Below, piece by piece: positions 2,667-20,069 of a DNA stretch of 64,000 nucleotides. The notes below the pieces were generated by a model. That model was not told where the DNA came from and did no database searches. It worked only from the letters and a program-made list of their open reading frames with translations. Origin of the DNA: Chlamydiota bacterium (GTDB lineage Bacteria; Auribacterota; JACPWU01); the NCBI GenBank assembly GCA_016178055.1, contig JACOUC010000036.1, positions 9 through 64,008 on the forward strand, in the 5' to 3' direction. How positions within the stretch are numbered: position 1 is the stretch's first letter; every line of letters begins with the position of its first letter. Made by a program: the position numbers and the translations under genes.

Positions 2667-2757
2667 ATTTTATGGAGGAAACGATACCAAAAGGCTCATA
2701 AAAAAGGAAGGATTACCTCTTAGATATTTCAAGGTTCATAAGAGGTTCATAAAAAAA

Positions 2758-2786
2758 TTGACGTAATACTGAATTACTGATATTCT
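2758..2786 (+). promoter_or_regulatory. Putative sigma70-type promoter of the AbrB/RelE pair
   Basis: TTGACG (2758..2763), a 17-nt spacer, then TATTCT (2781..2786). The spacer contains the direct repeat TACTGA-AT-TACTGA, a possible operator. Confidence 0.35.
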
Positions 2787-2819
2787 TACTTTCATCAGTC
2801 TAGAAAGGCGAGATACTAA

Positions 2820-3343: not shown

Positions 3344-3364
3344 CTTGCATCTACTCAAACGGCA

Positions 3365-3613: not shown

Positions 3614-3617
3614 GCTT

Positions 3618-3878: not shown

Positions 3879-3930
3879 GCGTTGATTTTACCATAAGAAG
3901 AGACAGACTTTTCAAAAAAAATTGAACTCT

Positions 3931-6900
3931 TCACATGCTTCGTTCCGTCATCTCCGTCGCTTCACGAAATTTTTCCATTTGATCATGCCAACGGCTTACA
4001 TTTGCGAAGGGCGTAACCTGATGCTCGTCCACATCCACAAGCAATCCTTCCAACTCATCAGGTTTAAAACCATGCTGAAGCAATGCTCGGGTAATCGCTT
4101 CGGCATCCCCATAACAAATGGCAGCCATCACGGACACCATCTCCTGACCGTACATGAATTTGTCAAAGAGCCCTTGAATGGGTTCATATAAGTTCCTATT
4201 TTCGCGATGCCCCAGCAGCCACTTTTCTGCCTCCTTCCCGCGAAAAAGTTCCCTCACTTTTGTATCGATTGCAGATCTCGCATCTTGTTCATTCAAATCT
4301 GTCAGGAAAAGAACTCTATCTTGAGGAATTTGATGTTCCCTGCAAAGGGTATCAAACTCTTCTCGAGATCTTTTTCGTTCCACAAAAACCATTTTACGAT
4401 TTCCTGTTTCGGATTCTTTAATAAATTCTGTCGGACTCAAACCTCCCAAACTTTGAACCGGTAAATCCATATCGGGGAATAGACAAACAGGTTTTTGATC
4501 TGCAGATGGTTTTAGAGCCGCTAAAAATTTTTTCTGAAAATGACGCAGCTTGGTTTTTAATCCAATCAGATAAGCGAGGGCCAAAGATAAATCTCTAGGC
4601 CGTGACATCTGAACGTGTGTGACACCCAGCGTCTGGGAATTCAGCTGAGCGGTCATTTCTCCTATTTCCATTTCGAATGACGCACCATTCATATCCTGTC
4701 TGATAGACCAAGTCACATCCCCACTAAAGTCGAGCGTAATCGAGCTTTGCTGAAATTCTCCTCTTTCTACCTTTCCTTCAAGCTCTTGCTCAATATTTTG
4801 AACTGTTTGACCCAACCCCTCCTCATCCAAAAGCCTCCTTGCCTCTAGCTCGAGAGAAAGTCTTTCAGTTTTTGCCTGATGAGCCTCTGCCTCTCTAATA
4901 AGATCCGGATGTTTGACTTGGATCATGAGTTCGACCAGTACAGCATCTAAAGTCTTAAGATCATTCTCTGAAAGCGATGTCTCTTTAGCAAATGAATGTG
5001 TCGCATCTCCCAAAGTCCAAAGAATGTCATAAACGGTATGGCTCTCCATCCATTCCCTTAAGGAAAGTCCCGCCGTTATGTTCTCCTGGGCCCAGGATTC
5101 AAAATTTTGAATTAAATTTTGTTTATGGAATTGAACAACGCCCTCTAAAATTCTAGACTTCAAAGGTTCATCTTCGGGCACCAAATGAAGATAAGCTGAA
5201 AAAATTTCTACTAAACCCTTTCGTTCATTGATGGCCCTAACAGCCGCCCGAACACTGGCCCAGGGGAAGGCGTCTCTTCCTTGATAATGACAAACCAAAA
5301 GGTCCGCTCGATACAACCATTTGTTTATCTCTGTAAAAAAGGCATTTGTCTCGTCAGGGTATAACGACCGAATCCCTGAAGTGTTATAGCCCGGGAAAGA
5401 CAAGCCCGTTATAAGAAATTCTACAGAGGAGTAAACTTCATACTCTGGTTGAAACGGGATGGCCTCTTGATAAAGGCAGTATTGATTCTCACCAACACGT
5501 TGAATCACCAAATAAAGATCTTCATTCTGATTTTCAAAATAAATTTCCCCCCTCGGTAAATTTAAAAAGCAAACGCCTTGATGGGAAAGACGCTTTAACA
5601 ATCTCTCCACCACCTCCTGTTGAGTCTGGGTCAATAAATAAAAAGGCTGAATGGCATTTCCAGATTCATCAACCCAATCGACCCCCTTCGCCAAAAACCT
5701 GCGTTCTACCCCTTCATCAGGTTTCTTTAAATGGTGTAAAGTCATGCTAAGCGAAATAAAATCAAAAGATTCTGCAGAACGATTCTGCATAAACGATTCA
5801 CTCATTACATCATTTTGAGGAATTCTGGCGTCAAGATATGTCACCCCTTCTACATCCGTTTGTCCTCTCTCCCTAAAATCCGCACTGTTAAAAGCACTCT
5901 CTCTGATCTCTCCACTCTCTAGCGAATAACTGGGGAAAAAGGCATCTGTTCCTTCATAGCTAAAATGGGTCCCGGGCAAAGCCTCTTCAAAAGTTTTTCT
6001 CAAAAGATTGAGCGTGGGAGCCCCATAAGCCTTCGGGGCAGATCCAATGTCCAGCCAACGATAATGGTCTTTATGAGGTATCGACAAATGAAGTGAAGGA
6101 AGGTGAGTGGGAATCCATTCCGCTTCAACACCAAAGGGATTTGCATAAAGATGATACATGTCCAGTAAATATCGAAACTGAGGATTGATTTGGATAAACC
6201 GGACAATCGGCTCTCTTGAAAAAATATCTCTTCCTTCAAACATATTCACCACTGCAAGTGCAAGAGGCATGAAACGATGTTCTCCACTGGCATGCCAGGT
6301 CATGAATTTTAGAAAACGCACTATATTTTCTAAGACCTCTTTTCGCCGAGTCTCTGGCAAAGCAGCAACGATTGATAAAATCTTTCCTGCCTCTCGATGT
6401 CGTTCATCGTCATTAGCAAAATCCAACCCGAAAATAGCTGCAATTCCTTCTAAAATATTTTTCTCTTCAATCGTTTGGTGATTAATCTCCGTATAAATTC
6501 GTTTAATCTCAGTTAAGATATTCGTCCGACGCATAACACCTAAAAACAACTTCAAATGTCTCTCCAAATTCGCCTCTCGGGAAAACCTCTTGCCAGCCAC
6601 TTGTCTCGCCCTTTGTCCCATCGTAACTCTTAAATTTGGATGACGGATTAATTCCTCAATTTTCCCTCTAAACGCTTCAACATTTCCAGACTCAACAATA
6701 CAGCCTGTTTCTCCATCCACAACTGTTTCAGGCAATCCTCCCGATCGAGAAACAATAACGGGTTTTCCCATACTTTGAGCCTCTAAAGACACGAGACCAA
6801 ATGTTTCCTCATTTTTTAATGGTTCATCTCGTCTGCTTGGCATGGCAACGATATCGGAAAGAAAATACCAATCTCTCATTTCTTCCGCACTCAAAGGGCC

Positions 6901-9900
6901 TAAAAGAACAATTAAAACACCCTCTTCACGCAAATGTTGAATTTTCTCATACAAAGACTCTCTGAACTGTCTATTGTAGTCGTCATCTCCGTCTCTCAGC
7001 ATATCCTCCGTGAAACCCGCAATGACAACAGCCGCATTCCTCTTTAAATCATTTGATAAGCCCAATATGGCATCGAGCACGACGTCATATCCTTTCCGTT
7101 CCACTGGACGGCCCGACATCAAAATAACTGTCTTACCGGACAAAGAATGATTTACTCTCAAGTCATCTGTTTTGGTAGTAGTCACATAACGAGGATCGTA
7201 AAAACTTAAATCAGCAACAGGATAAAGGCACTCCACTTCAACACCAAAGTCCTTCTGAAATCTTTTTTGAACAGACTCACTAACCGTCAGAGCTAAATCA
7301 GCTTTCTTAAGAATATTTACCGTATTCGGAGAGAAAAATCTTGAATCACCAACCAAATCTTCTGGGACTCGATCTAACAAACGCCAGGGCCCTGAGTGAA
7401 ATTCTTGGATCACAGGTATTTTATTTTGTTTTCCGAACGCATTAAAAGCATTCCCTGCATAGTGAAAAGAAGATTCACTCACAATGAGATCTACTTTACC
7501 CTCTTCTTGTAAAATTTTCCTTAACAAGCCATTGACTTCATCTGCAAGATCTTGCCCTGGCTCATTATTCTGACGAGTCATATGAATTTGAACAACGCCT
7601 TCCAATTCCGATGAAACGACGACTTTACCCCCATCCCGTTTCAATAATGGAGACACCCTTTGACCACCACCCAGAACAATCACATGGATTTTGAGTCCTT
7701 TAATCTCTTGAGCCAATAATAAAAGCAGATGATCCATATAGGTCGATACCCCATTCATCTCCAAATACCCAGGGGCATAAAAAACAAGCACTTTTCCCGA
7801 AAATGCCTCTTTGAGTTGAGATAAGTTCTCTGTTGTTGAAGCTTCCCCCTGTGTAACAGTAATCGAACCCTCTGGACTTGTTTGGGAACCTTGGTCATCG
7901 TTCGCATCATCCCCTAACACCCCCTTCTGATAAAGGGCCCCTGTGACCGTTACCCAATGATTAGAGACAATGTGGGCAATCAGGCCCATGGCCAAAACCG
8001 GCCAGAGGCGAAGTATATTTGAAAAAAGGTTTGATACAACACTCGTCGGTTGAATATCCGGAAGAAGACCAGCAAGGGCAATGTCAGGTTGAATTAACGA
8101 AGTTAATATCAGCAACCCCATGCCCACTACTAAAAAAATCGCTGCTCTTTGACTCTTTCCCTTGACTTGCCTAAGCATCTGTCCTACGATTCCTGCCATG
8201 GAAGAAAATAAATCTGAAAATGATTCCGTAATGAAATCAAGCCACGTGGCTGTCATTCTTGAAGACCTTCGAGGCCAATTTAAGGTTTTTGGAGAAGGGT
8301 TATCCGGACTTCGTGAAAAGACAGAGGAAGGCTTCGCAAGAATCGATAAAAAGTTCGACCGTATCGAAAATGAGCTTGCTAATTTTCGCGTTCGTGTGCG
8401 CGGAGTTGAAGACGGCAATGCACGTATAGAGACCAAAGTCGATAAGATCGAAACCCGACTAGAGAAGGTTGAGACCAAGGTTGATAAGATCGAAATCAGG
8501 CTAGGGAAGATCGAAACCCGACTAGAGAAGGGTGAAATCAAGGTAGAAAAGATTTCAGAAAGTAACGTCCGAATTGAGGCCGATCTTAGGATCATCAAAA
8601 ATCTTGTCAAAGTGAAGGTTGATTTGGAAGAATATAAAATTCTGGAAGATCGTGTTGCCCTTCTTGAATCAAAATTTGCTGCTCTAGCGAGATAACGCGC
8701 TCCATACAAATTCCACACCAAATAAAAAGTTATCCCAACCACCAAAATCATCTCCCACGATGAGAGCCCTGTACGGAAAAATCCAAGAAGTGAGACCAGA
8801 GAAATCAAGGTTGGAATGAAAATTCTTCTGAAGCTAGATGAAAAACCGCTCGAAGCTCGAGGCTCAAAGCTCGAGGTAAATACTTCTTCGGTTCTTTGCT
8901 TTTCCCTCGAGCTTCGAGCCTCCAGCTCATTTTTAGCTTCTAGCCGCCTTTCATGCCCCCACACAAACACCACTCTCAAGACGGCGTAGAGCACAGGACT
9001 TCCTAAAGATAAGGCCCAAATAAAAATTTCTTCGATAAAAGGAACAACAAAATCTTCTTTAAAATCTCGACTCAAAGACTTTCGTCCAAGAACATTTACC
9101 CAAAACCAGTCGAGAGGTCGAGTAACCTGAGACGCCAGCCAATAGGAAGGAAGAAGAACGCCTTTGCCAGAAGAGAAAGAACCTAAAGCAGGATCAACAT
9201 AGCGACTTATAAATGCTTTTAACTCTTGCACTTTAAACAGAGGTTTTTCAGAAAGTTTTCGGGCTTGAATCTCATTAATATAGTGATTGAGCCAAACTTT
9301 TGCTAATTCTAGTCCCTCCTTATTGCCATGTTTTTTCATCATCTCTAGCAAAAATCCTTGCATGACCCCTGTTCGAAGAATGGCATCATGCCCCTGGCCA
9401 AGACTTTCATGTCGATAGCCCTTCTCACCTTCCCTCAACGAGCCAAGCCAGTGTAAATTAAAATAGTAATCAAGAAAGTGAGATGGATCGATCCCTCTTT
9501 TAGTTCCCCGCCATGTGATGAGAGAGAATTTCATTTCCCGACCCGAAATAACAGAAGCTCTCCCTTGTGCCGCTGTCAAATCTCGAACATCCACTCCCAC
9601 ATCTCCTGCATTAATTCTAAAGCCATCAATCAGGGTTTGAGCCTCAGGATTATAGTAACGAACCAAAAACCGTCCCATGGCCGCAAGGGTATTGATCATA
9701 TCTCCAGGCTCAACAAAAGCGCCCCACTTTCCAGGCAAACTTGTATTAACGAGTAAATATCCAGGAGGGATTCGATTTGCCCAAGCATGATGAGGCGAAA
9801 TATACTGAATCTCATCCCGACCATTGATGAATCGACTCGTGTAGGCGCTCACTTTTCCTTCCTGAGTCTCGACCTCTCCATCACGCAAAACCTCGACCAA

Positions 9901-12900
9901 TTCTGCATCCCCGCGATGGCTTAAAAGGGCTTGATACTCACTCGATGTAACACGTGATTTTTCTTGTGCGTCTCTGGCCATGACCATCACCAAAGGAATC
10001 ACTTCCTTCGTTTGTTTTAAAGTTGTCAAAATAAAATAAATATTCTGATAAACCCCCTCTTGAAGGCGAATGACTTGAACAGGAAATTCAATATCATCTA
10101 AAGAAAGTTTACGCCCTCCCAATTCATCCTGAAGAGAATCGAGCAAAATATTTCCCTCTCCCGTTTCAAGATTCTTCATCAACAGAGCCTCAACCGCATT
10201 TCTTGATTGTGCCAATGTCAAATCATTGCGATCCCGAGGCACATCCCACTGATCTCCCTGCCGCCACTGACCCGCTCGATAGAGGTCATAATGGCAAATC
10301 CTACCCCCTTGAGCCATCGAGGCATTGTCCGGCATTTTCTCCATCGCTTGAGATAATCTTTGATAGATCTCAAGCGTCTGAGAGAAAGTGGAGGGCATTT
10401 TGGTTTTGAGTATATTCAGCTTTGATTGATAACGCTCAAGCAAAGTCCGATCCTGCAAAATCACAAAATTGACTGCTGTTAGAAATAAGAGTTGGTCTAC
10501 TTGACTCTGAATCGCCCCTTCAATAAGTTTTCCAAGTGTCCCGATCTCCTCGGAAAGCAAGGCCTGTCTCACTTCTTCTGTGATACGCTGATGCACATTT
10601 TCTCGTCGAACCACAAGAGGTTGAAGAGTAGAGGCTGCAGGCAAAGCAGTTTCACCAGACAAAATATGCGCCTCAATAAACCTCCTCAACGCCTTGCCCA
10701 GGGGATTTTTGCCTTCGCGATTGAAAATTTTATCTGTGAGCTGGATAATCTGAGGATGCGTAAGACGGGTTCTTTCCAAGGCCTCATGAAGGGTCGCTTC
10801 ATCCACCAGATCCGAAATGCCAGTGCTCTTTTCCTCCGCCTCAAGAAACTGCATCAGATTGACCGCCAAAGCGCTTTCAGAGCCCAAGAAATATTTTTCT
10901 CTGCTCAAGACCCGAGCCTCAAACCATTTGAAAGCCTCTCGAGGATTTTGAAGAGCCGCCAAGACCTTTACTATTTCATCGTTTTCAATTCCTTGCTGAA
11001 CCAATGTGCTCCAAATCTCACTTCCAAGGCGCCCAGCCAAAGCCCTCGAGCGTTCTTCCACAAGCGTTACAACAGGCTCATGGGAACTTCTCACCTTGTC
11101 ACTTTGCTCTTCAATTTCTCTTCGCCACTGGGCTTCTTCGTCAGGCGTAACCTCTGGGCCAATGATGTTGCCTGAAGATGGCTCTTCTTCACTTAAGGCG
11201 AGTGACGGAGATTGGGAAGTTTGAAGTTGCCACACAATTTTAGAAGATCCATCACCATTCGTCGTTAACACCTGACTCCCATCTTCAGAAAACTTAGCAG
11301 AGCGCACCCAATTTTTTCCTCCATAAAAAGTCTCAAGGAGCTCTCTTGTTTCAACATTCCATACTTGACCACTCCAATATCGAGTTCGCTCTAGGTAATA
11401 GTTATATTGATCACCCCCCCAGCTTGTTTCAGTTCTATCAAAACGCATTGTTAATACTGTACGTCCATCAGGGGAAACAAGAATATGAACAAGTTTTTTG
11501 CCCATGTATTCCCTATAACGCTTGATAATGCGTTCCTTTGCTTCTTCGGTTAATAGAGAATCAGGAGATCGAGGAGTCGTGGTACCTAAAGGAGCGTCTG
11601 ACGCTGTCGAAGTTACACTTCCTTTTTTCCCCCTCTTTCGAGAAGGACTTGACGGAGGTGTGACTGTTGCTCCAGCAGAGTCAGCTGTTATCGTTGTCGT
11701 GGTCGAATCAGCCCCTGAGCCCGTTTCATCTCGCACAGGTTCAGGGACTATGACTACTTTTGGAGCTTCCGTACATTCCATCCTCAACCAATATGTCACT
11801 TCATTCTCCCCTTCTGTAAAGCCCAACTGACACCCTGGAATAGATGCCATTTGTGCCTTGAGTTCGAGTAGTTTATTCCTGACATTGGATTCTCCTGATT
11901 CTCTGAGACGAAGGGCCTCCTGTCTTGCAGCTTCAATGTCTGGATATTCACCGGTGAGATGTGTTTTTAAGAATTTCTCTTCGTTGGCAGACATTCTTCC
12001 TTCTCTGACAATCTGAATATTAAAGTGGCCTTCTTTTAATTCACTTCCCAGTTCAATGAATCGGCCTGGGTTGTGGGTTTTGGCGATGCGGACAAATTCA
12101 TTGAGCCAGTCTTTTGCGATGGGTCTTTGTTCTTCTGGTAGAGGGAGAGCTTGTGTGAATGGGGTGATGGCTGCATCTTTTAGTTGGGGGTCGTTGTGGT
12201 TTGAACGCTGCCTTTGTTGAGGGGGTGCAGGTAAAGGGGTTCTGGCCCAGAAGCAGCCATATTGTCCATTCATCTGATCGGTTTTGGGAGCGGTTCTTTC
12301 AGAGTCGATGAGATTTGAAAGCACGGCTGGCTCCACCCCATCATTCTGAGAATCCACTGTTTGGCCGACGAGTCCCATGATCTTCTGAAAGATGGGAGCG
12401 ACAGCTTGAGAAGCTGATAATCGATTGTCTGAAGGGGGCGCAGGGTCGAAGGTGAATTGAAAGCCTCTTTCTGGGTTGATGTCTATGTGGAAGGTTCCGC
12501 CATTGAGAATGTGGCCTTGAGCCATTTCTTCGAGGATTCTGTTGCTTAAGGGGTCTCTGATCTCCTGTTCGATGAGTCGTCGTAAGGGCCGTGCCCCATT
12601 GATGATGTCATAGCCTCTTTGAGCGAGGGTTTCATAGACGTTATCCGCGACTTCGACTTTGAATTTGTTTTCTGTGAAGTCACTGAGTTCCCGTTTTAAG
12701 AGGATGCGAGCAATTTGTCTTATGTTTTCAGGGGTGATGACGTTGCAGGCGATGATGTGGTCGATGCGGTTGATGATTTCAGGTTTGTATTTGGCTCTGA
12801 TGCTGGTTTCTACGGTTTGGGCAATGAGGTCGTTCATTTGGGTAATAATAGCTTGTGTTGCCTCTTCTGTTTCTGCGGTTTTAAGTTCTTCAGCCAGGGT

Positions 12901-15900
12901 TCGTAATGGACCTTGTATTTTCTCCATGCCAATGTTGGAGGTCATGATGATGAGGGTGTTTTTGAAGTCGACGGTGTTCCCTTGGCCGTCGGTGAGTTTT
13001 CCTTCGTCGAAGACTTGCATGAGGGTGGTAAGGACGTCCGAATGGGCTTTTTCGATTTCATCAAAGAGGAGAACGGAATAAGGACGTTTGCGGACGGCTT
13101 CGGTGAGTTGGCCGCCTTCTTGGAATCCCACATAACCCGGTGGGGAGCCGATGAGTCTGGATTTTTGATGGGATTCTTGGTATTCACTCATATTGAAGAC
13201 CGTTAAGGCCTGGTCGCTGTCAAAGAGGAATTGAGCTAAGGCTTTAGCCAGTTCTGTTTTGCCTACGCCTGTGGGGCCGGCCATGAAGAAGACGCCCATG
13301 GGACGTTTGCGCTCACCGGGGATAGCCCGGGCACGACGAATGGCTTGAGCGACGGCTTTGATGGCGTCTTCTTGGCCTACGACTCTTTTATGGAGTTCTC
13401 CTTCGATGTTCAAATATTTGGCTGCGTCGTCTTGGTCTAAGGCACCGACGGCCATGCCGGTCATGTCGGCTAAATATTCCTGGACGTCGGCTTGGGTGAT
13501 GCGGATGTCTTTTCTTAAATTGGATAATCGGCTCAAAATAGTATGGTAAGCCTCGAGTATGCCGATCATTTGGTTATGGACTTCGATGACGGTGGGGTCG
13601 GTGTCTGGAACTCCTTCTTTTTTAAGGTCGATGTATTCGTTAATGACGCTGTGGAGACGGTTGAGGAAGTCTTCTTTAGTCATTTCTAGACTGTTCCTTC
13701 GGGCGTTGACTCGGCCCATGGTTCCTTCTAAGACGTCAATGGCTTTGCGGGGTTGGGATTTTTCAGAGAGATAGCGTTGGGCGCATTTGACAGCGGCTTT
13801 AATGGTAGCACGATCTATTTTGAGTGAGAATTTTCCTTCTAAGTAGGTTTTGGCGCCCGTAAGAATGGTTTCTGTTTCCTGGACACTGGGTTCAGGGACA
13901 GAAACTTTGGTAAACCTGTCTTCGAAGGGTTTGTCTTGTTCGATGTAGGCTTTGTATTCAGGGTCTGTCGTGGCCCCAATCACAGTGACTCGCCCTTTTT
14001 CCAGGATGGGCTTTAAGAGGTCTGCGATTCGGGTGTCAATGCTGTTGCTGGGCCCTTTCAATAGGAAATGGATTTCATCGATGAAGAGAATGACGTTGTT
14101 GTTGGTTTTTTCAAGGAGTGGGATCAGTGTTTTGAGGTTGTCTGACATCTCTGAGAGGGTGCTTCCTAAAGCACCCGCTTTAAGGGCAATGATTCTCCTA
14201 CCCTTTAAAGGGCCATCGAGGTTGTTTCGGGCAAGTTTCAAAGAGACGAGTTCGACGAGGGCTGTTTTACCGACTCCTCTGGGGCCGACAAGAACTAAGC
14301 TGTTTTTGATTCTTACTGGAGTGGCCAGACGAGCCATGATGCGGCCGATTTCTTCAGAGCGCCCCACCAATGGGCGAGCGCTGTCAGCTTCAAGAGCGAG
14401 GTCATAGGTATAGTCTTTTAATACCTGCCACTCTTTTTTCTTTTGACCATTGCCTAAATCGACATCTGCGTTCAGTCCTATTCTCTTCAAGTAATCATCC
14501 AGGGGCTCCATCGGAGACTCACCTACAGAGAGTCGAAGGAATGGGACACCGAGGAGATATCCTAAAAGACCTGCAACTACGGTAAACAATAAGGAAGCAA
14601 TCGAAGATCTCCCATTGATCATCGAAGCCCCCCATGGTACTATTTTGATAAAGGAGGCTTTAAAATGTCCGCGAAACTGCAAGAGCTGACGGAATTGATG
14701 GGAGAATTGGAGCCTAAAAGTCTTTCTCGACGAAGTAGAAATGTTGCCAAAGCGCTCTTGGGTAGCTGCCGCGGCCTCATCACGCCTCGAGGTAAGTCCT
14801 CTACCCGGTGGATCCGACAAGAACGTTCCTCCCTCCACAGCAAGGTGAGATAGTTCTGTGCCCTCATTACCAACACTCATTCTCGATACAGATGTCATTG
14901 TCAACTGGCTATCGGAAGAGCTTGAAACAGGAACAGGTCGAGAGTTATGGAAAGCCCCATTTGACATTATCTCTAAAGCAGAAGAAGGTCGCTCTAGTGT
15001 ACTCATTTGTCTTACAACTCTGTTAGAGCTTAGATTTCTCTTGAGGAGAAAGAAACGGCTGAGTGACGCTTCGATTCGGTCTATTATTAATCGAATGTTC
15101 CAAATTATTTCGGTCAATGTTCCTGACAAAACTGAATTGCTCAGGGCCAACCATCTCCAGAGCCTCCATCCTTTGGACCCGTTTGACGCAATACTGCTCG
15201 CTTGCGCCATGTCGTCTGAAGAAGCTATTCTTGTTTCTCGTGACAAGCCACTCCTTCGCATTGCATCTGAATTCCTTGAAGCACTTAACCCTGAAGATGC
15301 CCTCGCCAAAATTTCAAAGTCTTGAATAGCATCAATGCTAAGACGAAAAACCGGAGAGCCAAAAATCCATCCTAAGAGGCCTGTCCCTATGGCTAATAAC
15401 ACAGAACCAATTTTGAGGATGTGTTGAGCATGTGTATGCTCTCCTTTTCCATCGCCATGAGAATGGGTGTGAGCGGGTTTCATCACTATGCTTGAGGTAG
15501 GGCCTCCTTCATTTGAGGATTGAAGAAGTTCGAGGATTTTAAATTCATCGAGCCAATTCCCAATGGCTTCTACGACGCTTACTCCGTCAGGGAGCCTACA
15601 CTCTTCTATAAGTTTTCTTACAGTGGCTTCATCATCGGCCCCCATTTTTCCCATTTCACGCAGTTTTTCAATCAGCCTGGGCGTTAAGGCCTCACGAAAG
15701 CGCTCTTGAGTATAAGCACCGCTATTGATCATTTCATCCAGGGCCTCAGGGACGGCATGGGAAGCAGCATGTTCTGCGTCTTCTGAGTCTAAGTTGCTTT
15801 TGATGTCGGGATTCTTTTCGGCATCTTGAGCAAGTTGCCGCCCGATCCGGCCTAAGATCTGAGTCAATTTCTTCGCCGCTTCGTCTAGTTTTTTCTGAAT

Positions 15901-18900
15901 AAATTCTTCCTTCATGAGAATATTGGCTTGAATCTCTTTAAAAGGCTTACCGTAATGCTGTTCCAGCTCTTTTTGAAAAAGTTTAATAAAAAGGTCCCGC
16001 GTCTTAGGATCAGCCGTTTTTAATCGATCCGCCAGAAATTCACGTAAGGGTCTTTCCTCACACCAGCCCAGGGCACCAAAACCAAAGAATGCAGATATGG
16101 GAGACGTCATTGCGAGGAGCGAGAGCTCCGAAGCAATCCCAGCTTTGCGCAAAACAGAGATGGCTTCGTCGGCTTCACCTCCCTGCAATGACGGCCAAAC
16201 ATAGCTTCCATCCAAAGACGGAAGAGGCAAAAGATTCACCAACCCTAAAGCCAAATTAATTTTGACTCCCCAAATAAGCGGGCCCATTAAAAATCCAAAA
16301 GGCCCAACGGCATTAGCGGCAAGGGCCCCTACCGCAAAGACCACGGCCAAAATTAAATTACTCACCGGCCCCGCAAGCGCTACTTTCTTCATCGAAGATT
16401 CTGAGAGCCGCCAAGAAGAAATAGGAACGGGCTTTAACCACCCGATCGGAATCCCGATCAAAAGCGTAGACGCTAAAAAAGAAATCGTCCCCCAAAAATC
16501 TAAATGCCTCCAAAACCTGAGCAACGTCAATCGCCCCGCCTCCTCAGCCGTCCGATCCCCCAACCTCGCCGCCAGCCATCCATGGGCATATTCATGAAGA
16601 ATCGCGGAGAAGAGAATAATTGCTATCAATGGAACAGCACTTCCTAAAAGGCCAGGGTTGGCCACAAATACAGCGGCAAAAGGAATGCACAAAAAGACAT
16701 AAATATTCTTGACTTGCCCCGGACTTGATTCTATGATTTTTCTCATGAATGAGAAAAAGACTCCAAAACCTATTCCTACTCCAGAAGAAGCCCAGCGATA
16801 CAACTCCGTTATTATTGAGGAGATGAGAAGCCAATTTAAGGTTTTTGGCGAAGGATTAACCGGTTTTAGAAAAGAAACGAATGCACGATTTGACAGACTC
16901 GAAGAAGTCGTTATGGATACGCGTGAACGTGTCTCTAGGGTAGAGAATAGACTCACCAAAGTTGAAGAGAGCAACGCTCGCATTGAATCTGACATTCGCC
17001 TCATCAAAAACCAAATCAAAGTCAAGGTGGATTTAGAAGAATTTAAAGTACTTGAAAATCGGCTTGTGATCGTTGAAAAAAGACTGGCTGCCCTTCCCAT
17101 CTCCGCTTGATTAGCGCTATTTGAAACTCTTCTGGAACCCCCTATACTGCGTATCAAGCCATCCACATCCCCCACATATCCTCCTAATTCCAAGGCTCTT
17201 CTAAGGTAAATTTCTATTGAATGAGCCGTTTGTGCGTGACTCAGGAAAAATCGCATCTGATCTTGCGTGAGCGTAGTCACGCGTTCAAGCCAAAGAAGAG
17301 GGTTTTTCTGCAATTCATCGGAAACTTCCGAACGATTTTCCTTTCCCGCTTTCCTCTCTATTTCTCGAATAACCCCTTCTAAATCTCTCGCCACCTCCTC
17401 CCAATTTTCTAAATTAAGTTCTCGGGCCAAAACCTCTTGATCCCTTTGCCATTGATCAAATTGGAGAGCCGTAAGCCCCGCAGCAAAAGCAGCCTCTTCT
17501 CCCAACGAGCGTATTTCCTCAAGAAAATGAAGCCTCGCGATTTTCTGAAGGGTCGGAAGTGAGGCTTCTTTTAAAGCATCAGGAGCGCCCGAAATAAATC
17601 CAAATTGCTCTTTCATCTTCCTAAAATAGGCGCTGCGATCGTCATGACCCGTCATACGAGGGGCAATGACCCAATAACCGATCTTGGCCTCTTTCAATTT
17701 CTTCGTGATCCCCTCCGTATGAAACCCACCCACCACAAGCGCTGCACAGGGAAGTTTCTTTTCCTGAATTAATTTAAGAGATTTTTCGAACATGATTTTG
17801 TCTCGTTTTAGAACTTGAGTGTAGAATTTTTGGGAGAGGTTAAAGATTTCTCCAAAATCAGGAGATTCATAGTCTATTGCTTCCTTTTTAGCTAATTCGC
17901 CAAGTTGAATTAGAAAATCTCCGATAAAGTCGTTCGGGCCTGCTTGGCTCGAGGCTCGAGGATAATACTTTGCTCGAGGCTCGAAGCTCGAGGCTCGAAG
18001 TAAATGCTTCTCCAGTTTTTGCTTTTGCCTCGAGCCTCGAGCTTCGAGCCGTTTTATGTCTTCCCTACTTCCTTCCATCGCAATCACACGCCTGAGTAGG
18101 TCATAGTCTTTTTCTAACGCCAGCAGCTCTTTCGCCTGAGGCGTTGTCGCCAAATTTTCAACGAGTTCTCCTTCGAGGTTTTTAATTTCTTCATCCAACT
18201 TCTCCCAAGAGATTTGTTTTAGGAGAGACATTTGTTGAATAAGGAGTTGAAGATTGGGATATGGAGCTGATTTCTCGACAGGCTCGAAACGTTTATTAAT
18301 TCTGTTATTGGAGTGCTTCTCGACTGCGCCTCTCGCTCCACTATCGTTTCTCGACGCGTTTCGACTAATGTCGAAACTTGCTTGAAAACTAAATTTATTG
18401 TTCGAGCGTAGTCGAGAACCTTCCTTCGCGTCCTCTACCTCCTCCTGGCCCCTCCTTGTGGTTTGCGCCGTGTTAGGCTCCAACCACTTCCTCGTCCACC
18501 CGCTACGGCGGGTACCCGGACTTGGTCGCAAGGAAGGGAGATTATTTCCCTCTAGCTTCGAGCCTCGAGCCTCGAGCATTCCTAAGTACTTGCTTAGGAA
18601 CAAATAATGCTCTTCATCACTGGTTCTGCCCAGCCGATGCTCTAAGATATTTCTCAAAACTTCATTGAGTTCTTCTTTTGGAAGCTTCTTCTCTAGTTCA
18701 GATAAAAATAAGAGGTATTCAGACTCAATTTTTGATGCGTCCGTTTTCTTTTCGAGTGCTTGGAGTCGAAGGTAGAAATCAAGCTGGGGGTAGTTTTGGC
18801 TCGAAGCTCGAGGCTCAAGGCTCGAGGAGGAAAGAGGAAGAGATTTATTTTCTACATTTTCAGTTTTTCCTTTTGTCTTTGCTTTTGCCTCGAGCTTCGA

Positions 18901-19887
18901 GCCTCGAGCCTTCAGCCCGTTTTCCGCTTCTAGCTGCTTTACATATTCCCCCATCTCTATCTTATGCTCCCTATACTTCTCCCTTTCTTCAATGAGCTCT
19001 ATCAATTCCTTTGGATAAATTTTTTCGGACAAACCCCTAAATATATCATCTAAACCCTGCCAGACATGCTCTTGTAAATTCCTCTCCTTCAAAAGCTCCC
19101 CCATCGCCCTTAAATTCTCGACATAATCAGACAGTTCTTCCACCCCCACTCCCTTAACCTTTTTTGGCCCTTCCTTAACGAGAAAAGTCTCCACCCCATC
19201 GAGTTCATTTTTATCCAAGAATTTTTTGAGAAGAGAAGCTAAAACCCTCTGATCTGGGAAAGACCAGAAAAAGGACATGTCCATTTCACCATCAGCAGCC
19301 TCACAAAATATATGAAATGGTTTAAAATTCTCAGATACGGCTCTAACTTTGAGATTGTTTTGGCTCGAAGCTCGCCCGCCTCGCCTGACTCGTTCGTCAG
19401 ACGAGTCGCCGCCTTTGGCGAGCCTCGCCCTTTGGCGGGAGGTGGGAGGCTCAAGGCTCGAGGTAAATACTTCTGCTTTCTTTGCTTTTGCCTCGAGCTT
19501 CCAGCTTCGAGCCTCGAGCCCGTTTTTTTCTTCGAGCTTCGAGCCTCGAGCCTCTAGCTGCTTTTGTAAAATTTTCAACATCCTCTGAATATTCTCTTGC
19601 GCCTGAGAATTACAATGAATATCTTCAATAATGAAGAGATGAGGTGCTCCGGGGACATAGAATTGATCGGTCACTTCCCCTATTTCATGGGGAATACGCA
19701 TCTCCTCCAAAACTGAACTTAAATCGAGGGATTTGCGATCCACAGGATTAAACTCATTTACAGAAGTGACTGCTTTCAAATGAGTTGCGAATTGAGTATT
19801 CTGGCCAACAGAATAAGAAATGTCATAAAAGAGGAAGGAAAAACAAACGCACAAACTAATCAATGAACGCATAAACCTGACAAGCAT
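3931..19887 (-). CDS. Giant composite ORF1. Order: signal/TM, ChaN/TraB-like N-domain, M50 protease, Clp-type 2xAAA+, beta-propeller-like segment, large unknown region, GT4 glycosyltransferase, SAM-methyltransferase-like block, unknown C-terminus. It may be four fused cistrons.
   Basis: No stop from 19998 to 3931 (5355 codons). Likely start is ATG 19887 (MLVRFMRSLISLCVCFSF, signal-like), preceded by GAGAGGGG. The blocks are separated by stretches that are antisense to real plus-strand genes. In the ORF1 frame these stretches translate as S/T/L/R-rich low-complexity sequence. Confidence 0.55.
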   Translation of the reverse strand: MLVRFMRSLISLCVCFSFLFYDISYSVGQNTQFATHLKAVTSVNEFNPVDRKSLDLSSVLEEMRIPHEIGEVTDQFYVPGAPHLFIIEDIHCNSQAQENIQRMLKILQKQLEARGSKLEEKNGLEARSWKLEAKAKKAEVFTSSLEPPTSRQRARLAKGGDSSDERVRRGGRASSQNNLKVRAVSENFKPFHIFCEAADGEMDMSFFWSFPDQRVLASLLKKFLDKNELDGVETFLVKEGPKKVKGVGVEELSDYVENLRAMGELLKERNLQEHVWQGLDDIFRGLSEKIYPKELIELIEEREKYREHKIEMGEYVKQLEAENGLKARGSKLEAKAKTKGKTENVENKSLPLSSSSLEPRASSQNYPQLDFYLRLQALEKKTDASKIESEYLLFLSELEKKLPKEELNEVLRNILEHRLGRTSDEEHYLFLSKYLGMLEARGSKLEGNNLPSLRPSPGTRRSGWTRKWLEPNTAQTTRRGQEEVEDAKEGSRLRSNNKFSFQASFDISRNASRNDSGARGAVEKHSNNRINKRFEPVEKSAPYPNLQLLIQQMSLLKQISWEKLDEEIKNLEGELVENLATTPQAKELLALEKDYDLLRRVIAMEGSREDIKRLEARGSRQKQKLEKHLLRASSFEPRAKYYPRASSQAGPNDFIGDFLIQLGELAKKEAIDYESPDFGEIFNLSQKFYTQVLKRDKIMFEKSLKLIQEKKLPCAALVVGGFHTEGITKKLKEAKIGYWVIAPRMTGHDDRSAYFRKMKEQFGFISGAPDALKEASLPTLQKIARLHFLEEIRSLGEEAAFAAGLTALQFDQWQRDQEVLARELNLENWEEVARDLEGVIREIERKAGKENRSEVSDELQKNPLLWLERVTTLTQDQMRFFLSHAQTAHSIEIYLRRALELGGYVGDVDGLIRSIGGSRRVSNSANQAEMGRAASLFSTITSRFSSTLNSSKSTLTLIWFLMRRMSDSMRALLSSTLVSLFSTLETRSRVSITTSSSLSNRAFVSFLKPVNPSPKTLNWLLISSIITELYRWASSGVGIGFGVFFSFMRKIIESSPGQVKNIYVFLCIPFAAVFVANPGLLGSAVPLIAIILFSAILHEYAHGWLAARLGDRTAEEAGRLTLLRFWRHLDFWGTISFLASTLLIGIPIGWLKPVPISSWRLSESSMKKVALAGPVSNLILAVVFAVGALAANAVGPFGFLMGPLIWGVKINLALGLVNLLPLPSLDGSYVWPSLQGGEADEAISVLRKAGIASELSLLAMTSPISAFFGFGALGWCEERPLREFLADRLKTADPKTRDLFIKLFQKELEQHYGKPFKEIQANILMKEEFIQKKLDEAAKKLTQILGRIGRQLAQDAEKNPDIKSNLDSEDAEHAASHAVPEALDEMINSGAYTQERFREALTPRLIEKLREMGKMGADDEATVRKLIEECRLPDGVSVVEAIGNWLDEFKILELLQSSNEGGPTSSIVMKPAHTHSHGDGKGEHTHAQHILKIGSVLLAIGTGLLGWIFGSPVFRLSIDAIQDFEILARASSGLSASRNSDAMRRSGLSRETRIASSDDMAQASSIASNGSKGWRLWRWLALSNSVLSGTLTEIIWNIRLIIDRIEASLSRFFLLKRNLSSNRVVRQMSTLERPSSALEIMSNGAFHNSRPVPVSSSSDSQLTMTSVSRMSVGNEGTELSHLAVEGGTFLSDPPGRGLTSRRDEAAAATQERFGNISTSSRKTFRLQFSHQFRQLLQFRGHFKASFIKIVPWGASMINGRSSIASLLFTVVAGLLGYLLGVPFLRLSVGESPMEPLDDYLKRIGLNADVDLGNGQKKKEWQVLKDYTYDLALEADSARPLVGRSEEIGRIMARLATPVRIKNSLVLVGPRGVGKTALVELVSLKLARNNLDGPLKGRRIIALKAGALGSTLSEMSDNLKTLIPLLEKTNNNVILFIDEIHFLLKGPSNSIDTRIADLLKPILEKGRVTVIGATTDPEYKAYIEQDKPFEDRFTKVSVPEPSVQETETILTGAKTYLEGKFSLKIDRATIKAAVKCAQRYLSEKSQPRKAIDVLEGTMGRVNARRNSLEMTKEDFLNRLHSVINEYIDLKKEGVPDTDPTVIEVHNQMIGILEAYHTILSRLSNLRKDIRITQADVQEYLADMTGMAVGALDQDDAAKYLNIEGELHKRVVGQEDAIKAVAQAIRRARAIPGERKRPMGVFFMAGPTGVGKTELAKALAQFLFDSDQALTVFNMSEYQESHQKSRLIGSPPGYVGFQEGGQLTEAVRKRPYSVLLFDEIEKAHSDVLTTLMQVFDEGKLTDGQGNTVDFKNTLIIMTSNIGMEKIQGPLRTLAEELKTAETEEATQAIITQMNDLIAQTVETSIRAKYKPEIINRIDHIIACNVITPENIRQIARILLKRELSDFTENKFKVEVADNVYETLAQRGYDIINGARPLRRLIEQEIRDPLSNRILEEMAQGHILNGGTFHIDINPERGFQFTFDPAPPSDNRLSASQAVAPIFQKIMGLVGQTVDSQNDGVEPAVLSNLIDSERTAPKTDQMNGQYGCFWARTPLPAPPQQRQRSNHNDPQLKDAAITPFTQALPLPEEQRPIAKDWLNEFVRIAKTHNPGRFIELGSELKEGHFNIQIVREGRMSANEEKFLKTHLTGEYPDIEAARQEALRLRESGESNVRNKLLELKAQMASIPGCQLGFTEGENEVTYWLRMECTEAPKVVIVPEPVRDETGSGADSTTTTITADSAGATVTPPSSPSRKRGKKGSVTSTASDAPLGTTTPRSPDSLLTEEAKERIIKRYREYMGKKLVHILVSPDGRTVLTMRFDRTETSWGGDQYNYYLERTRYWSGQVWNVETRELLETFYGGKNWVRSAKFSEDGSQVLTTNGDGSSKIVWQLQTSQSPSLALSEEEPSSGNIIGPEVTPDEEAQWRREIEEQSDKVRSSHEPVVTLVEERSRALAGRLGSEIWSTLVQQGIENDEIVKVLAALQNPREAFKWFEARVLSREKYFLGSESALAVNLMQFLEAEEKSTGISDLVDEATLHEALERTRLTHPQIIQLTDKIFNREGKNPLGKALRRFIEAHILSGETALPAASTLQPLVVRRENVHQRITEEVRQALLSEEIGTLGKLIEGAIQSQVDQLLFLTAVNFVILQDRTLLERYQSKLNILKTKMPSTFSQTLEIYQRLSQAMEKMPDNASMAQGGRICHYDLYRAGQWRQGDQWDVPRDRNDLTLAQSRNAVEALLMKNLETGEGNILLDSLQDELGGRKLSLDDIEFPVQVIRLQEGVYQNIYFILTTLKQTKEVIPLVMVMARDAQEKSRVTSSEYQALLSHRGDAELVEVLRDGEVETQEGKVSAYTSRFINGRDEIQYISPHHAWANRIPPGYLLVNTSLPGKWGAFVEPGDMINTLAAMGRFLVRYYNPEAQTLIDGFRINAGDVGVDVRDLTAAQGRASVISGREMKFSLITWRGTKRGIDPSHFLDYYFNLHWLGSLREGEKGYRHESLGQGHDAILRTGVMQGFLLEMMKKHGNKEGLELAKVWLNHYINEIQARKLSEKPLFKVQELKAFISRYVDPALGSFSSGKGVLLPSYWLASQVTRPLDWFWVNVLGRKSLSRDFKEDFVVPFIEEIFIWALSLGSPVLYAVLRVVFVWGHERRLEAKNELEARSSREKQRTEEVFTSSFEPRASSGFSSSFRRIFIPTLISLVSLLGFFRTGLSSWEMILVVGITFYLVWNLYGARYLARAANFDSRRATRSSRILYSSKSTFTLTRFLMILRSASIRTLLSEIFSTLISPFSSRVSIFPSLISILSTLVSTFSSRVSILSTLVSIRALPSSTPRTRTRKLASSFSIRSNFLSILAKPSSVFSRSPDNPSPKTLNWPRRSSRMTATWLDFITESFSDLFSSMAGIVGQMLRQVKGKSQRAAIFLVVGMGLLILTSLIQPDIALAGLLPDIQPTSVVSNLFSNILRLWPVLAMGLIAHIVSNHWVTVTGALYQKGVLGDDANDDQGSQTSPEGSITVTQGEASTTENLSQLKEAFSGKVLVFYAPGYLEMNGVSTYMDHLLLLLAQEIKGLKIHVIVLGGGQRVSPLLKRDGGKVVVSSELEGVVQIHMTRQNNEPGQDLADEVNGLLRKILQEEGKVDLIVSESSFHYAGNAFNAFGKQNKIPVIQEFHSGPWRLLDRVPEDLVGDSRFFSPNTVNILKKADLALTVSESVQKRFQKDFGVEVECLYPVADLSFYDPRYVTTTKTDDLRVNHSLSGKTVILMSGRPVERKGYDVVLDAILGLSNDLKRNAAVVIAGFTEDMLRDGDDDYNRQFRESLYEKIQHLREEGVLIVLLGPLSAEEMRDWYFLSDIVAMPSRRDEPLKNEETFGLVSLEAQSMGKPVIVSRSGGLPETVVDGETGCIVESGNVEAFRGKIEELIRHPNLRVTMGQRARQVAGKRFSREANLERHLKLFLGVMRRTNILTEIKRIYTEINHQTIEEKNILEGIAAIFGLDFANDDERHREAGKILSIVAALPETRRKEVLENIVRFLKFMTWHASGEHRFMPLALAVVNMFEGRDIFSREPIVRFIQINPQFRYLLDMYHLYANPFGVEAEWIPTHLPSLHLSIPHKDHYRWLDIGSAPKAYGAPTLNLLRKTFEEALPGTHFSYEGTDAFFPSYSLESGEIRESAFNSADFRERGQTDVEGVTYLDARIPQNDVMSESFMQNRSAESFDFISLSMTLHHLKKPDEGVERRFLAKGVDWVDESGNAIQPFYLLTQTQQEVVERLLKRLSHQGVCFLNLPRGEIYFENQNEDLYLVIQRVGENQYCLYQEAIPFQPEYEVYSSVEFLITGLSFPGYNTSGIRSLYPDETNAFFTEINKWLYRADLLVCHYQGRDAFPWASVRAAVRAINERKGLVEIFSAYLHLVPEDEPLKSRILEGVVQFHKQNLIQNFESWAQENITAGLSLREWMESHTVYDILWTLGDATHSFAKETSLSENDLKTLDAVLVELMIQVKHPDLIREAEAHQAKTERLSLELEARRLLDEEGLGQTVQNIEQELEGKVERGEFQQSSITLDFSGDVTWSIRQDMNGASFEMEIGEMTAQLNSQTLGVTHVQMSRPRDLSLALAYLIGLKTKLRHFQKKFLAALKPSADQKPVCLFPDMDLPVQSLGGLSPTEFIKESETGNRKMVFVERKRSREEFDTLCREHQIPQDRVLFLTDLNEQDARSAIDTKVRELFRGKEAEKWLLGHRENRNLYEPIQGLFDKFMYGQEMVSVMAAICYGDAEAITRALLQHGFKPDELEGLLVDVDEHQVTPFANVSRWHDQMEKFREATEMTERSM
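5560..6070 (-). other. ORF1 block: class I SAM-methyltransferase-like region
   Basis: WLDIGSAPKAYGAPT (motif I-like) and FDFISLSMTLHHL (motif III/post-II-like). Weak call made by eye. Confidence 0.35.
6530..7800 (-). other. ORF1 block: GT4-type (GT-B) glycosyltransferase domain
   Basis: VLVFYAPGYLEMNGVSTYMDHL at the N-terminal end of the block. GRPVERKGYD and the EX7E-type ETFGLVSLEAQSMGKPVIVSRSGGLPETV motif lie toward its C-terminal end. Confidence 0.75.
8162..8190 (+). promoter_or_regulatory. Sigma70-type promoter giving a leaderless transcript of the nested coiled-coil gene (copy 1)
   Basis: TTGACT (8162..8167), 17-nt spacer, TACGAT (8185..8190), 7 nt, then ATG at 8198. The geometry is identical to 16709..16737. 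Confidence 0.6.
8198..8695 (+). CDS. Coiled-coil protein of unknown function (copy 1), nested antisense in ORF1
   Basis: MEENKSEN... with six near-perfect heptads (IETKVDK IETRLEK VETKVDK IEIRLGK IETRLEK GEIKVEK). It is a paralog of 16745..17110, sharing QFKVFGEGL and the conserved tail N.RIE.D.R.IKN..KVKVDLEE.K.LE.R. The TTG at 8162 used by the ORF track is the -35 box. Confidence 0.7.
   Translation: MEENKSENDSVMKSSHVAVILEDLRGQFKVFGEGLSGLREKTEEGFARIDKKFDRIENELANFRVRVRGVEDGNARIETKVDKIETRLEKVETKVDKIEIRLGKIETRLEKGEIKVEKISESNVRIEADLRIIKNLVKVKVDLEEYKILEDRVALLESKFAALAR
8848..8945. repeat. In-frame palindromic (GCTCGAG)n hairpin element
   Basis: Left arm 8848..8876, loop TAAATACTTCTTCGGTTCTTTGCTTTTC, right arm 8905..8928. 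In ORF1 it translates as LEAKNELEARSSREKQRTEEVFTSSFEPRASS. Confidence 0.85.
12480..14420 (-). other. ORF1 block: Clp/Hsp100-type double AAA+ ATPase
   Basis: Walker A motifs GPRGVGKT (~14264..14290) and GPTGVGKT (~13255..13280). Also ILFIDEIH, VVGQEDAI, LLFDEIEKAH and GARPLRRLIE motifs. A single TM helix precedes the block (MINGRSSIASLLFTVVAGLLGYLLG). Confidence 0.85.
14615..14643 (+). promoter_or_regulatory. Sigma70-type promoter of the nested PIN module
   Basis: TTGATC (14615..14620), 17-nt spacer, TACTAT (14638..14643). It is followed by the SD AAGGAGG (14651..14657) and ATG 14665. Confidence 0.5.
14665..14853 (+). CDS. Small protein upstream of the PIN gene, putative cognate antitoxin
   Basis: Perfect SD AAGGAGG 7 nt before the ATG. 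The ORF ends 4 nt before the PIN start. No recognisable antitoxin fold by eye. Confidence 0.45.
   Translation: MSAKLQELTELMGELEPKSLSRRSRNVAKALLGSCRGLITPRGKSSTRWIRQERSSLHSKVR
14858..15325 (+). CDS. PIN-domain (VapC-like) ribonuclease, nested antisense in ORF1
   Basis: LILDTDVIVNWL at the N-terminus, LLEL, DPFDAILLACA and SRD acidic-residue motifs of PIN domains. GTG start, with AAGGTGAG upstream. Confidence 0.8.
   Translation: MPSLPTLILDTDVIVNWLSEELETGTGRELWKAPFDIISKAEEGRSSVLICLTTLLELRFLLRRKKRLSDASIRSIINRMFQIISVNVPDKTELLRANHLQSLHPLDPFDAILLACAMSSEEAILVSRDKPLLRIASEFLEALNPEDALAKISKS
16150..16746 (-). other. ORF1 block: M50 (site-2 protease) family metalloprotease
   Basis: HEYAHGW at 16582..16596 (HExxH within a TM helix) and the NLLPLPSLDG motif. 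The block begins at an in-frame Met at 16746 (MRKIIESSPGQVKNIYVFLCIPF). Confidence 0.8.
16709..16737 (+). promoter_or_regulatory. Sigma70-type promoter giving a leaderless transcript of the nested coiled-coil gene (copy 2)
   Basis: TTGACT (16709..16714), 17-nt spacer, TATGAT (16732..16737), 7 nt, then ATG at 16745. Confidence 0.6.
16745..17110 (+). CDS. Coiled-coil protein of unknown function (copy 2), nested antisense in ORF1
   Basis: MNEKKTPKPIP...IIEEMRSQFKVFGEGLTGFRKE...KVKVDLEEFKVLENRL. Paralog of 8198..8695. Confidence 0.7.
   Translation: MNEKKTPKPIPTPEEAQRYNSVIIEEMRSQFKVFGEGLTGFRKETNARFDRLEEVVMDTRERVSRVENRLTKVEESNARIESDIRLIKNQIKVKVDLEEFKVLENRLVIVEKRLAALPISA
17946..18050. repeat. In-frame palindromic (GCTCGAG)n hairpin element
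   Basis: Arms 17972..18000 and 18028..18050, loop TAAATGCTTCTCCAGTTTTTGCTTTTG. Translated as LEARGSRQKQKLEKHLLRASSFEPRA. Confidence 0.85.
18290..18577. repeat. Composite GC-richer insertion ending in a (CCTCGAG)n arm
   Basis: Contains the 20-mer GTTCGAGCGTAGTCGAGAAC (18400..18419), an internal IR CCTTCCTTCGCG/CGCAAGGAAGG, and the arm 18550..18577. ORF2 and ORF3 have no counterpart in their N-domains. Confidence 0.6.
18798..18917. repeat. In-frame palindromic (GCTCGAG)n hairpin element, long-loop variant
   Basis: Arms 18798..18827 and 18888..18917, with a ~60-nt loop similar to that of 54885..55004. Confidence 0.85.
19362..19556. repeat. In-frame (GCTCGAG)n element with a nested GC-rich hairpin insertion
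   Basis: GGCTCGAAGCTCG ... [GACTCGT-TCGTCAG-ACGAGTC hairpin] ... GGCTCAAGGCTCGAGG TAAATACTTCTGCTTTCTTTGCTTTTG CCTCGAGCTTCCAGCTTCGAGCCTCGAGCC. Confidence 0.8.
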
Positions 19888-20069
19888 GACAACCCCTCTC
19901 GATCTTGAAAAAATCAATAATGACTGCAAGCTTACATAAGTAAAGACACTTTGGGGACTAGAAATGTAAAAATAAAAATTTAGAAATTTCCATCTCACAA
20001 TTGATAAAGGAAGGTTTCTTATAGAATAACCAGCTATTCCTTCAAGCCCTTACATAATGATTTCCTCTA

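Follow-up and report, generated by a model that had tools for sequence, protein, structure and literature searches.

A probable small coiled-coil gene of an old, widespread family nested antisense within giant open reading frames

The 64,000-nt stretch of contig JACOUC010000036.1 analyzed here (assembly GCA_016178055.1, Chlamydiota bacterium), referred to below as the window, contains a giant open reading frame (ORF) on the minus strand, 3931-19998, which runs without a stop over 5,355 codons at 44% GC and chains gene A, M50, ClpB-like AAA+, GT4 glycosyltransferase and methyltransferase blocks. It spans three antisense gene units, two of which are members of one small-protein family. The evidence as a whole is best explained, with good though not full confidence on our part, if the member called copy 2 (plus strand, 16745-17110) is a genuine gene that has its own promoter and encodes a small cytoplasmic coiled-coil protein of 121 amino acids (aa). 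Its coding sequence lies wholly within the giant minus ORF and thus overlaps the opposite strand over its full length; it begins with the ATG at 16745, ends with the TGA at 17108-17110, and carries the N-terminal motif EEMRSQFKVFGEGL and the C-terminal motif IKVKVDLEEFKVLENR. The initial annotation of this DNA, which had described the locus as the second copy of a promoter-bearing cassette, placed its start at 16709, but this coordinate merely marks the TTG within the -35 box, and the ATG at 16745 is the likely start.

The other member, copy 1 (plus strand, 8198-8695, with the ATG at 8198 and the stop codon at 8693-8695), encodes a paralogue of 165 aa. The two are related at E-values of 1.5e-23 and 7e-25 in tblastn searches and share 36-38% protein identity. 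Their nucleotide similarity is confined to three blocks, CTTGACTTGCC and the regions encoding QFKVFGEGL and KVKVDLEE, and it ends at the promoter on one side and at the stop codon on the other; copy 1 is longer by four 21-nt (heptad) repeats at 8444-8553. The proposed paralogy over the promoter and both terminal segments, and the extra heptads of copy 1, thus hold. Copy 1 is an old paralogue of copy 2. A dicodon model trained on the long ORFs of the window favours the plus frame inside the giant ORF only at 8200-8650 and 16750-17050, and prefers the giant minus frame nearly everywhere outside these two intervals. By exact look-up neither the window proteins nor P0006 are on record, and neither copy is recorded as a called gene.

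By sequence, both copies belong to a large and widespread family of proteins that is unnamed and uncharacterised, the RSQFKVFGEGL family. A profile of the two copies retrieved 70 small proteins from a collection of 5.8 billion, with up to 58% identity and E-values down to 2e-31, all of which share the terminal motifs of the two copies, N- and C-terminal, around a central coiled coil that varies in length. An exhaustive profile search gave 671 cluster representatives at E<=1e-10, and the lengths of nearly all of them are within 95-175 aa. The family signature consists of a basic N-terminal tail, the motif LE[DE][LM]RSQF[KR]VFGEGL, a heptad core of variable length and the C-terminal motif K-V-D-x-x-E-F-x-x-L-E-x-R; residues E25, G35 and E36 are invariant and R28, F31, F34 and L38 nearly so. 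In the family alignments the N-terminal motif reads IIEEMRSQFKVFGEGL in copy 2 and ILEDLRGQFKVFGEGL in copy 1, both copies carry the C-terminal motif, and their lengths, 121 and 165 aa, fall within the family range of about 95-175 aa. The family hidden Markov model (HMM) scores the two window copies at E-values of 1e-43 and 2e-46 (hmmsearch), and a search with it of all six-frame ORFs of the window found these two and no third. With the family alignment, AlphaFold2 models copy 2 as one continuous helix over residues 13-115 (mean pLDDT, the predicted local distance difference test score, 90.7).

Copy 2 remains below the cut-off of every Pfam and NCBIfam model, and the NCBIfam and Protein Data Bank (PDB) sequence searches gave no specific family match to either copy. 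Copy 1 passes the Pfam FlaC_arch cut-off marginally (28.2 bits vs 27.8), and we read this and the other library matches as generic coiled-coil similarity. Many family members are ordinary stand-alone chromosomal genes with stop-rich antisense frames, among others in the candidate phyla radiation (CPR), Bacillota and Myxococcota. The neighbours of the stand-alone copies vary and include SpoU methylase, pilins, cellulase, TPR, SEC-C and bactofilins. At one locus, L001 (8365-10306), the small gene stands immediately after two bactofilin genes on the same strand, which hints, if weakly, that the small protein has a cytoskeletal or scaffold function.

A candidate sigma-70-type promoter lies directly upstream of the copy 2 start codon, with the -35 hexamer TTGACT at 16709-16714 and the -10 hexamer TATGAT at 16732-16737, 17 nt past the -35 hexamer and 7 nt ahead of the ATG. 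The same geometry precedes copy 1, as the initial annotation had noticed (8162-8190; -35 at 8162-8167, -10 at 8185-8190, then N7 and the ATG), with the copy 1 -10 box reading TACGAT. All four chlamydial copies have TTGACT-N17-TAnnAT-N7-ATG with exact N17 and N7 spacings, and the -35 region of copy 2 is conserved in all four as TTGACTTG; Omnitrophota and Planctomycetota copies have TTGACA-N17-TAnnnT, and in the Bacillota members a Shine-Dalgarno sequence, GGTGGTGAG, takes the place of the promoter-adjacent start. The possibility that the promoter match is due to chance, also raised earlier, applies to the match taken by itself, which is not significant in the window (25 promoter-like sites vs 17.8 +/- 4.4 in shuffled sequences), but not to its position. 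In a scan of the 50 nt before the ATG, with the -10 box ending 4-11 nt upstream and the -35 box 16-19 nt further up, a score of at least 9/12 was reached by 14 of the 29 family members, vs 1.7% of 703 ATGs drawn at random from this DNA. Such sequence comparison indicates that the promoter directly before the ATG is ancestral to the family and not specific to a cassette; since the geometry is family-wide, the likeness of copies 1 and 2 would be inherited and gives no sign of recent duplication.

Leaderless genes are expected to have a -10 box 6-10 nt before the start codon and no Shine-Dalgarno sequence, and copy 2, with TATGAT-N7-ATG and no GGAGG, has this arrangement. This layout, in which 7 nt separate the sigma-70-type promoter from the ATG and a Shine-Dalgarno sequence is missing, makes it most likely that the copy 2 mRNA is leaderless. 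The start codon itself lies in the tetranucleotide CATG (16744-16747), where it overlaps a methionine codon of the other strand: the minus codon 16746-16744 is an ATG in frame with the giant ORF, and the same is true of 8199-8197 at copy 1, so that the described overlap is found at both copies. This methionine is present in the four chlamydial copies, whereas nested copies of other phyla have isoleucine there, and its interpretation as a general restart codon of the giant frame was rejected for this reason. The copy 2 start codon is also spanned by a perfect 10-nt palindrome, TTTTTCTCAT-GA-ATGAGAAAAA (16737-16758), which is retained nearly completely, with one substitution in the right arm, around 4533-4554 of the related locus L002 described below. 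The palindrome could serve as an operator or form a structure at the 5' ends of the two transcripts.

The antisense nesting recurs in other genomes. A profile search limited to one genome per species yielded 27 loci, and in ten of them an antisense open frame, 1,370 to at least 6,738 codons long, encloses the small gene completely; these frames often extend beyond the fetched DNA, and their lengths are then lower bounds. The nested loci are L002 and L003 (one Chlamydiae metagenome-assembled genome, MAG), L009, L010, L014, L018, L023 and L025 (Omnitrophota), L019 (Planctomycetales) and L021 (unclassified), all at 39-51% GC. Nesting is thus seen in nine of the 11 loci from Omnitrophota and the Planctomycetes-Verrucomicrobia-Chlamydiae (PVC) group vs none of the 15 from Patescibacteria, Myxococcota, Bacillota and Acidobacteria, all of which have stops in all three antisense frames. 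Four loci at 61-69% GC (L107, L031, L106, L017) were left out of the nesting count, as their open frames are possibly compositional. Nesting was found again in a separate scan of metagenomes, at L085 (at least 5,408 codons), L086 (at least 5,139 codons) and L082, and many short metagenomic contigs are open up to their ends opposite the small gene. The giant frame of L010 has the order ICMT-[nested]-M28-[nested]-GNAT, with real domains flanking the nested copies. Other candidate nested genes in giant ORFs outside the window, the long antisense ORFs of L010, L085 and L107, gave no Pfam match. Two nested copies per giant ORF were observed at L010 (7973-8281 and 9953-10246, flanking the M28 peptidase) and at L021 (5198-5671 and 5683-5952). 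At L003, about 300-1900, the giant minus frame past the nested gene crosses a non-coding-looking repeat, PRVFLSGIHVFLDSRLPLSGATSLKLAGMTD, without stops.

The two strands are aligned in two different phases. Third codon positions coincide (wobble-aligned phase) in the window, L002, L003, L010, L014, L019 and L023, and the codon-aligned antisense phase is found in L009, L018, L021 and L025. In particular, L002, L003, L009 and L021 contain homologs of gene A, the N-terminal approximately 600 aa of the giant ORF, and in each of them the nested small gene comes after gene A, in a phase that differs between the chlamydial and the Omnitrophota-type loci. Conservation of gene A and the small gene across both phases therefore indicates that it is the plus-strand protein that is conserved, the minus frame being merely kept open. 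In the window the gene A module (minus strand, 17111-19998) has a signal peptide, is interrupted by palindromic elements and converges on copy 2 without a stop codon; it has no Pfam or PDB match, and its database homologs number three. Four extra loci considered in this connection (L109-L112) lack the small gene within the DNA examined.

Antisense stops are avoided in the nested genes well beyond the expectation from codon usage. The probability of finding none, estimated from the plus-strand protein sequence and the codon usage of the locus or window, is 0.06-0.068 for copy 2, 0.023 for L002, 0.0015 for L003, 0.02 for both L014 and L018, and 0.0005 for L025. Similar values were obtained for the third antisense unit of the giant ORF (plus strand, 14665-15325), which consists of an antitoxin-like ORF of 62 aa (14665-14853, with the Shine-Dalgarno sequence AAAGGAGG; probability 0.011) and a PIN-domain ORF (14858-15325, Pfam PIN_3, E 2e-11; probability 0.032), and which looks like a vapBC-type toxin-antitoxin pair. 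Taken jointly, the four plus-strand genes within 3931-19998 would lack antisense stops with a probability of about 7e-6. Stops do occur in the remaining two antisense frames, 3-17 of them over copy 1, copy 2 and the PIN ORF; over the 62-codon antitoxin-like ORF there are four in one frame and none in the other. The giant frame is open across the small gene because the codons of the small gene avoid the few patterns that give antisense stops. Both frames thus bear marks of selection, the plus frame by protein conservation across phyla and the minus frame by stop avoidance and recurrent read-through. The minus-strand peptide sequence opposite the small gene is not conserved: the giant-frame translation opposite both small genes is rich in Ser, Leu, Thr and Arg, as is typical for the antisense of a coiled coil, and opposite copy 2 it supplies a spacer, with stretches such as VNPSPKTLNWLL and NPSPKTLNW, that separates the gene A module from the block after it.

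In the most likely history, neighbouring separate genes, including those on the opposite strand, would have been fused into one ORF. In this way the giant frame would have come to run over the antisense strand of small genes older than itself ("overprinting in reverse"), crossing the small gene's antisense with no stop between modules; the giant ORF is also open across the toxin-antitoxin-like pair, which argues for such overprinting on older small genes at module boundaries. The promoter, start codon, length and invariant residues are kept in every nested copy, and the nested small gene is therefore most likely still expressed; its protein probably works with the giant-gene system. If both strands are expressed, as we infer, the mRNA of the small gene would double as a cis-antisense RNA, and if both are transcribed, head-on transcription would link expression of the small gene negatively to that of the downstream modules. 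The functional coupling suggested in the initial annotation, of which antisense regulation of the giant transcript would be one candidate form, gains indirect but strong support from the nesting in giant ORFs of three phyla and from the antisense stop avoidance. A more far-reaching model is attractive, although we regard it as tentative and rather doubtful in its entirety: the giant genes of Omnitrophota, Planctomycetota and Chlamydiota would harbour, at module boundaries, conserved antisense genes with their own promoters; both strands would be translated over more than 100 dual-coding codons through phylum-level divergence; and the leaderless mRNA would act as a cis-antisense brake or processing signal dividing the expression of the giant transcript, with the end of the chlamydial duplex at the in-frame AUG of the next module.

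Several observations weigh against an old gene nested in a translated giant frame. For copy 1 alone the probability of no antisense stops is 0.28-0.35. The giant-frame peptide opposite the small gene has no homolog among the 5.8 billion proteins and shows no apparent function of its own, and in the wobble-aligned phase the periodicity of substitutions cannot tell the two strands apart. In L002 the upstream portion of gene A falls into several frames, which means either that the giant ORF is broken in some genomes or that repeats were misassembled. All sequences are from MAGs or metagenomes. Finally, neither a conserved neighbour at the stand-alone loci nor a known domain in the library searches hints at the role of the small protein.

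Some of these observations would be expected if the giant ORF were a string of separate minus-strand genes and its open frame across the plus-strand genes were due to chance or a gene-calling artefact. Its modules do resemble stand-alone genes, the closest relatives of the M50 block (minus strand, 16150-16743) being free-standing site-2 proteases of 200-230 aa; the methionine at CATG is found in four chlamydial copies; the wobble-aligned phase has the lowest density of antisense stops, with a probability of about 0.3 for copy 1; and the frame breaks in L002 gene A point the same way. However, 5,355 codons at 44% GC are free of stops, so that the upstream modules would have no terminator codon, and at the position where its free-standing homologs begin the M50 block lacks a start codon. 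The joint probability for the four plus-strand genes, the absence of the CATG methionine from the nested copies of other phyla, and the read-through, which recurs in two phases in no fewer than 12 independent low-GC loci and reaches more than 6,700 codons, also make this explanation unlikely.

Alternatively, the nested ORF could be a silent relic or act as a cis-antisense RNA only, the giant gene being the sole protein-coding feature. A strong promoter facing the transcription of the giant gene would suit antisense control, the window and L002 are unusually alike over the promoter-proximal 140 nt (98% nucleotide identity, four differences), and a palindrome marks the start of copy 2. We nevertheless find this improbable: a relic would decay, and a role as RNA only would not keep the protein motifs in two phases, whereas every nested copy, like the stand-alone copies, retains its start codon, its full-length frame, E25, G35 and E36 and the near-invariant residues.

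The comparison with L002 bears on the origin of the unit. The closest relative of the window giant ORF is from a Chlamydiae MAG, and L002 is an orthologous locus in a related Chlamydiae MAG, where the giant ORF (1378-7313, vs 3931-19998 in the window) shares with the window gene A, the small gene and the C-terminal approximately 400 aa. The edge of homology is sharp and lies 12 nt upstream of the -35 box. Beyond it the blocks are unrelated: to the left of the breakpoint the window has about 12.7 kb with the order M50-ClpB-...-copy 1-GT4, and L002 has an unrelated block of 2.3 kb. The promoter edge is thus the junction where the blocks differ. The M50 block, reported in the initial annotation to abut copy 2, does adjoin its promoter in the window; it is absent at the corresponding place in L002, and the contact is lineage-specific. 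Such a breakpoint gives limited support to the earlier suggestion of a recombining unit.

No terminal inverted repeat (TIR) or target-site duplication (TSD), for which a search had been proposed, is common to the flanks of copies 1 and 2; collections of phages and plasmids contain no homolog of the small protein; and Rfam has nothing above the gathering score in or around the unit, with sub-threshold hairpin matches at palindromic elements only. A cassette of the miniature inverted-repeat transposable element (MITE) or insertion sequence (IS) type was rejected on these grounds and by the 37% protein identity of the copies. More generally, a mobile or recombining promoter-bearing cassette inserted twice, antisense and in frame, and spreading between giant genes, would agree with the two copies in one ORF in the window, in L010 and in L021, with the L002 breakpoint and with the differing giant-ORF contexts in three phyla, but it is very improbable given nucleotide similarity limited to the promoter core and motifs, no transposase nearby, the conserved position beside gene A across Chlamydiota and Omnitrophota-type loci and the many members that stand alone as ordinary chromosomal genes. 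What stands of the original proposal is that two promoter-bearing paralogues lie antisense within one giant ORF and both preserve its frame.

Among the modules of the giant frame, Pfam domains above the cut-off are M50, ClpB-like AAA+ and GT4, and the methyltransferase assignment (Methyltransf_23) is sub-threshold, at 18.6 bits vs a cut-off of 27. The M50 (site-2 protease) block matches PF02163 and has the motif HEYAH at 16596-16582. The ClpB-like AAA+ block (12000-14500) has a GC skew of +0.08 to +0.24, and the skew is negative elsewhere in the giant ORF, which suggests a different origin of this block. Two more giant ORFs were observed on the minus strand of the window, at 35566-56676 (7,037 codons) and 56705-63763 (2,353 codons), 29 nt apart and in different frames; plus-strand coding islands are absent from both. 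Within the former, two segments about 6 kb from each other (46376-46869 and 52397-52899, 71-79% identity) form an internal duplication.

Palindromic hairpin elements composed of GCTCGAG/GCTCGAA heptamers (29 motif matches vs none in shuffled sequences) occur only inside the three giant ORFs, at 8848-8937, 17969-18060, 18541-18588, 18794-18927, 19432-19569, 36487-36535, 54881-55007, 55621-55662, 63032-63079 and 63342-63449. They are always free of stops and are translated as LEARGSKLE/SSLEPRASS. The element at 8848-8937, which lies about 150 nt past the stop codon of copy 1 and has a T-rich tail after it, is a possible terminator for the plus-strand transcript. The closest one downstream of copy 2, at 17969-18060, is about 860 nt away, inside gene A. 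More generally, hairpin elements with T-rich tails could terminate antisense transcripts.

Antisense overlapping genes in bacteria are still debated, largely since most candidates are young and restricted to single lineages; here the embedded gene is old and recognisable across phyla. The system also offers natural controls in the form of stand-alone homologs with closed antisense frames, and in addition two independent phases and a measurable avoidance of stops. With respect to the origin of giant genes, the modules look like former free-standing genes, and opposite-strand neighbours appear to have been engulfed without a break in the frame, which suggests strong selection for uninterrupted translation through the clusters. 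Pipelines that call the giant ORF will overlook such nested genes, and the family HMM provides a simple handle on these sites in any giant gene.

Several known systems resemble parts of this arrangement. In the excludon of Listeria, a single transcript is the mRNA for one gene and at the same time serves as a long antisense RNA against the opposite gene. The window locus would similarly link two expression states negatively; the antisense part of an excludon is in the untranslated region, and here the whole coding sequence would be antisense and the overlapped frame is open. Leaderless mRNAs exist in bacterial systems, that of lambda cI being an example, and copy 2 shares with this type a -10 box ending 6-10 nt before the ATG and the lack of a Shine-Dalgarno sequence, with its start predicted computationally. 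The palindromic elements of Rickettsia are inserted in frame into genes. They resemble the (GCTCGAG)n hairpins, which are also palindromic repeats within ORFs that leave the frame unbroken, and not the small-gene unit, which has no palindromic ends and codes for a conserved protein on the other strand.

The giant genes of Omnitrophota (bioRxiv 10.1101/2023.11.21.568195; 10.64898/2026.06.07.730766) are ORFs rich in glycosyltransferase, methyltransferase and peptidase modules, and neither paper mentions antisense, nested or opposite-strand genes. The window ORF is of the archaeovorin type in that it chains glycosyltransferase, methyltransferase (sub-threshold), peptidase and ATPase-type modules, and several of the loci with a nested gene are themselves Omnitrophota giant ORFs; with 5,355 codons, it is far short of the archaeovorin size (more than 90 kb and 30,000 aa, in Omnitrophota). 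The closest precedents for the overlap itself are olg1 and olg2 of Pseudomonas aeruginosa (PMC8850804) and the examples from enterohemorrhagic Escherichia coli (EHEC; PMC9927249), which are long antisense overlapping genes with a young embedded ORF and an old host. As in these cases, an ORF of more than 100 codons is fully embedded opposite another and both frames show constraint. Expression has been shown for olg1, olg2 and the EHEC genes, and the window case is read from its DNA. Unlike in these precedents, the embedded gene is old and has stand-alone homologs in several phyla, it is the giant host frame that is overprinted and seemingly selected only to stay open, and the arrangement recurs in three phyla and two phases. 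Antisense overlapping genes as such are thus known; what is new, as judged from these comparisons, is an old, conserved and probably leaderless small gene nested in giant ORFs.

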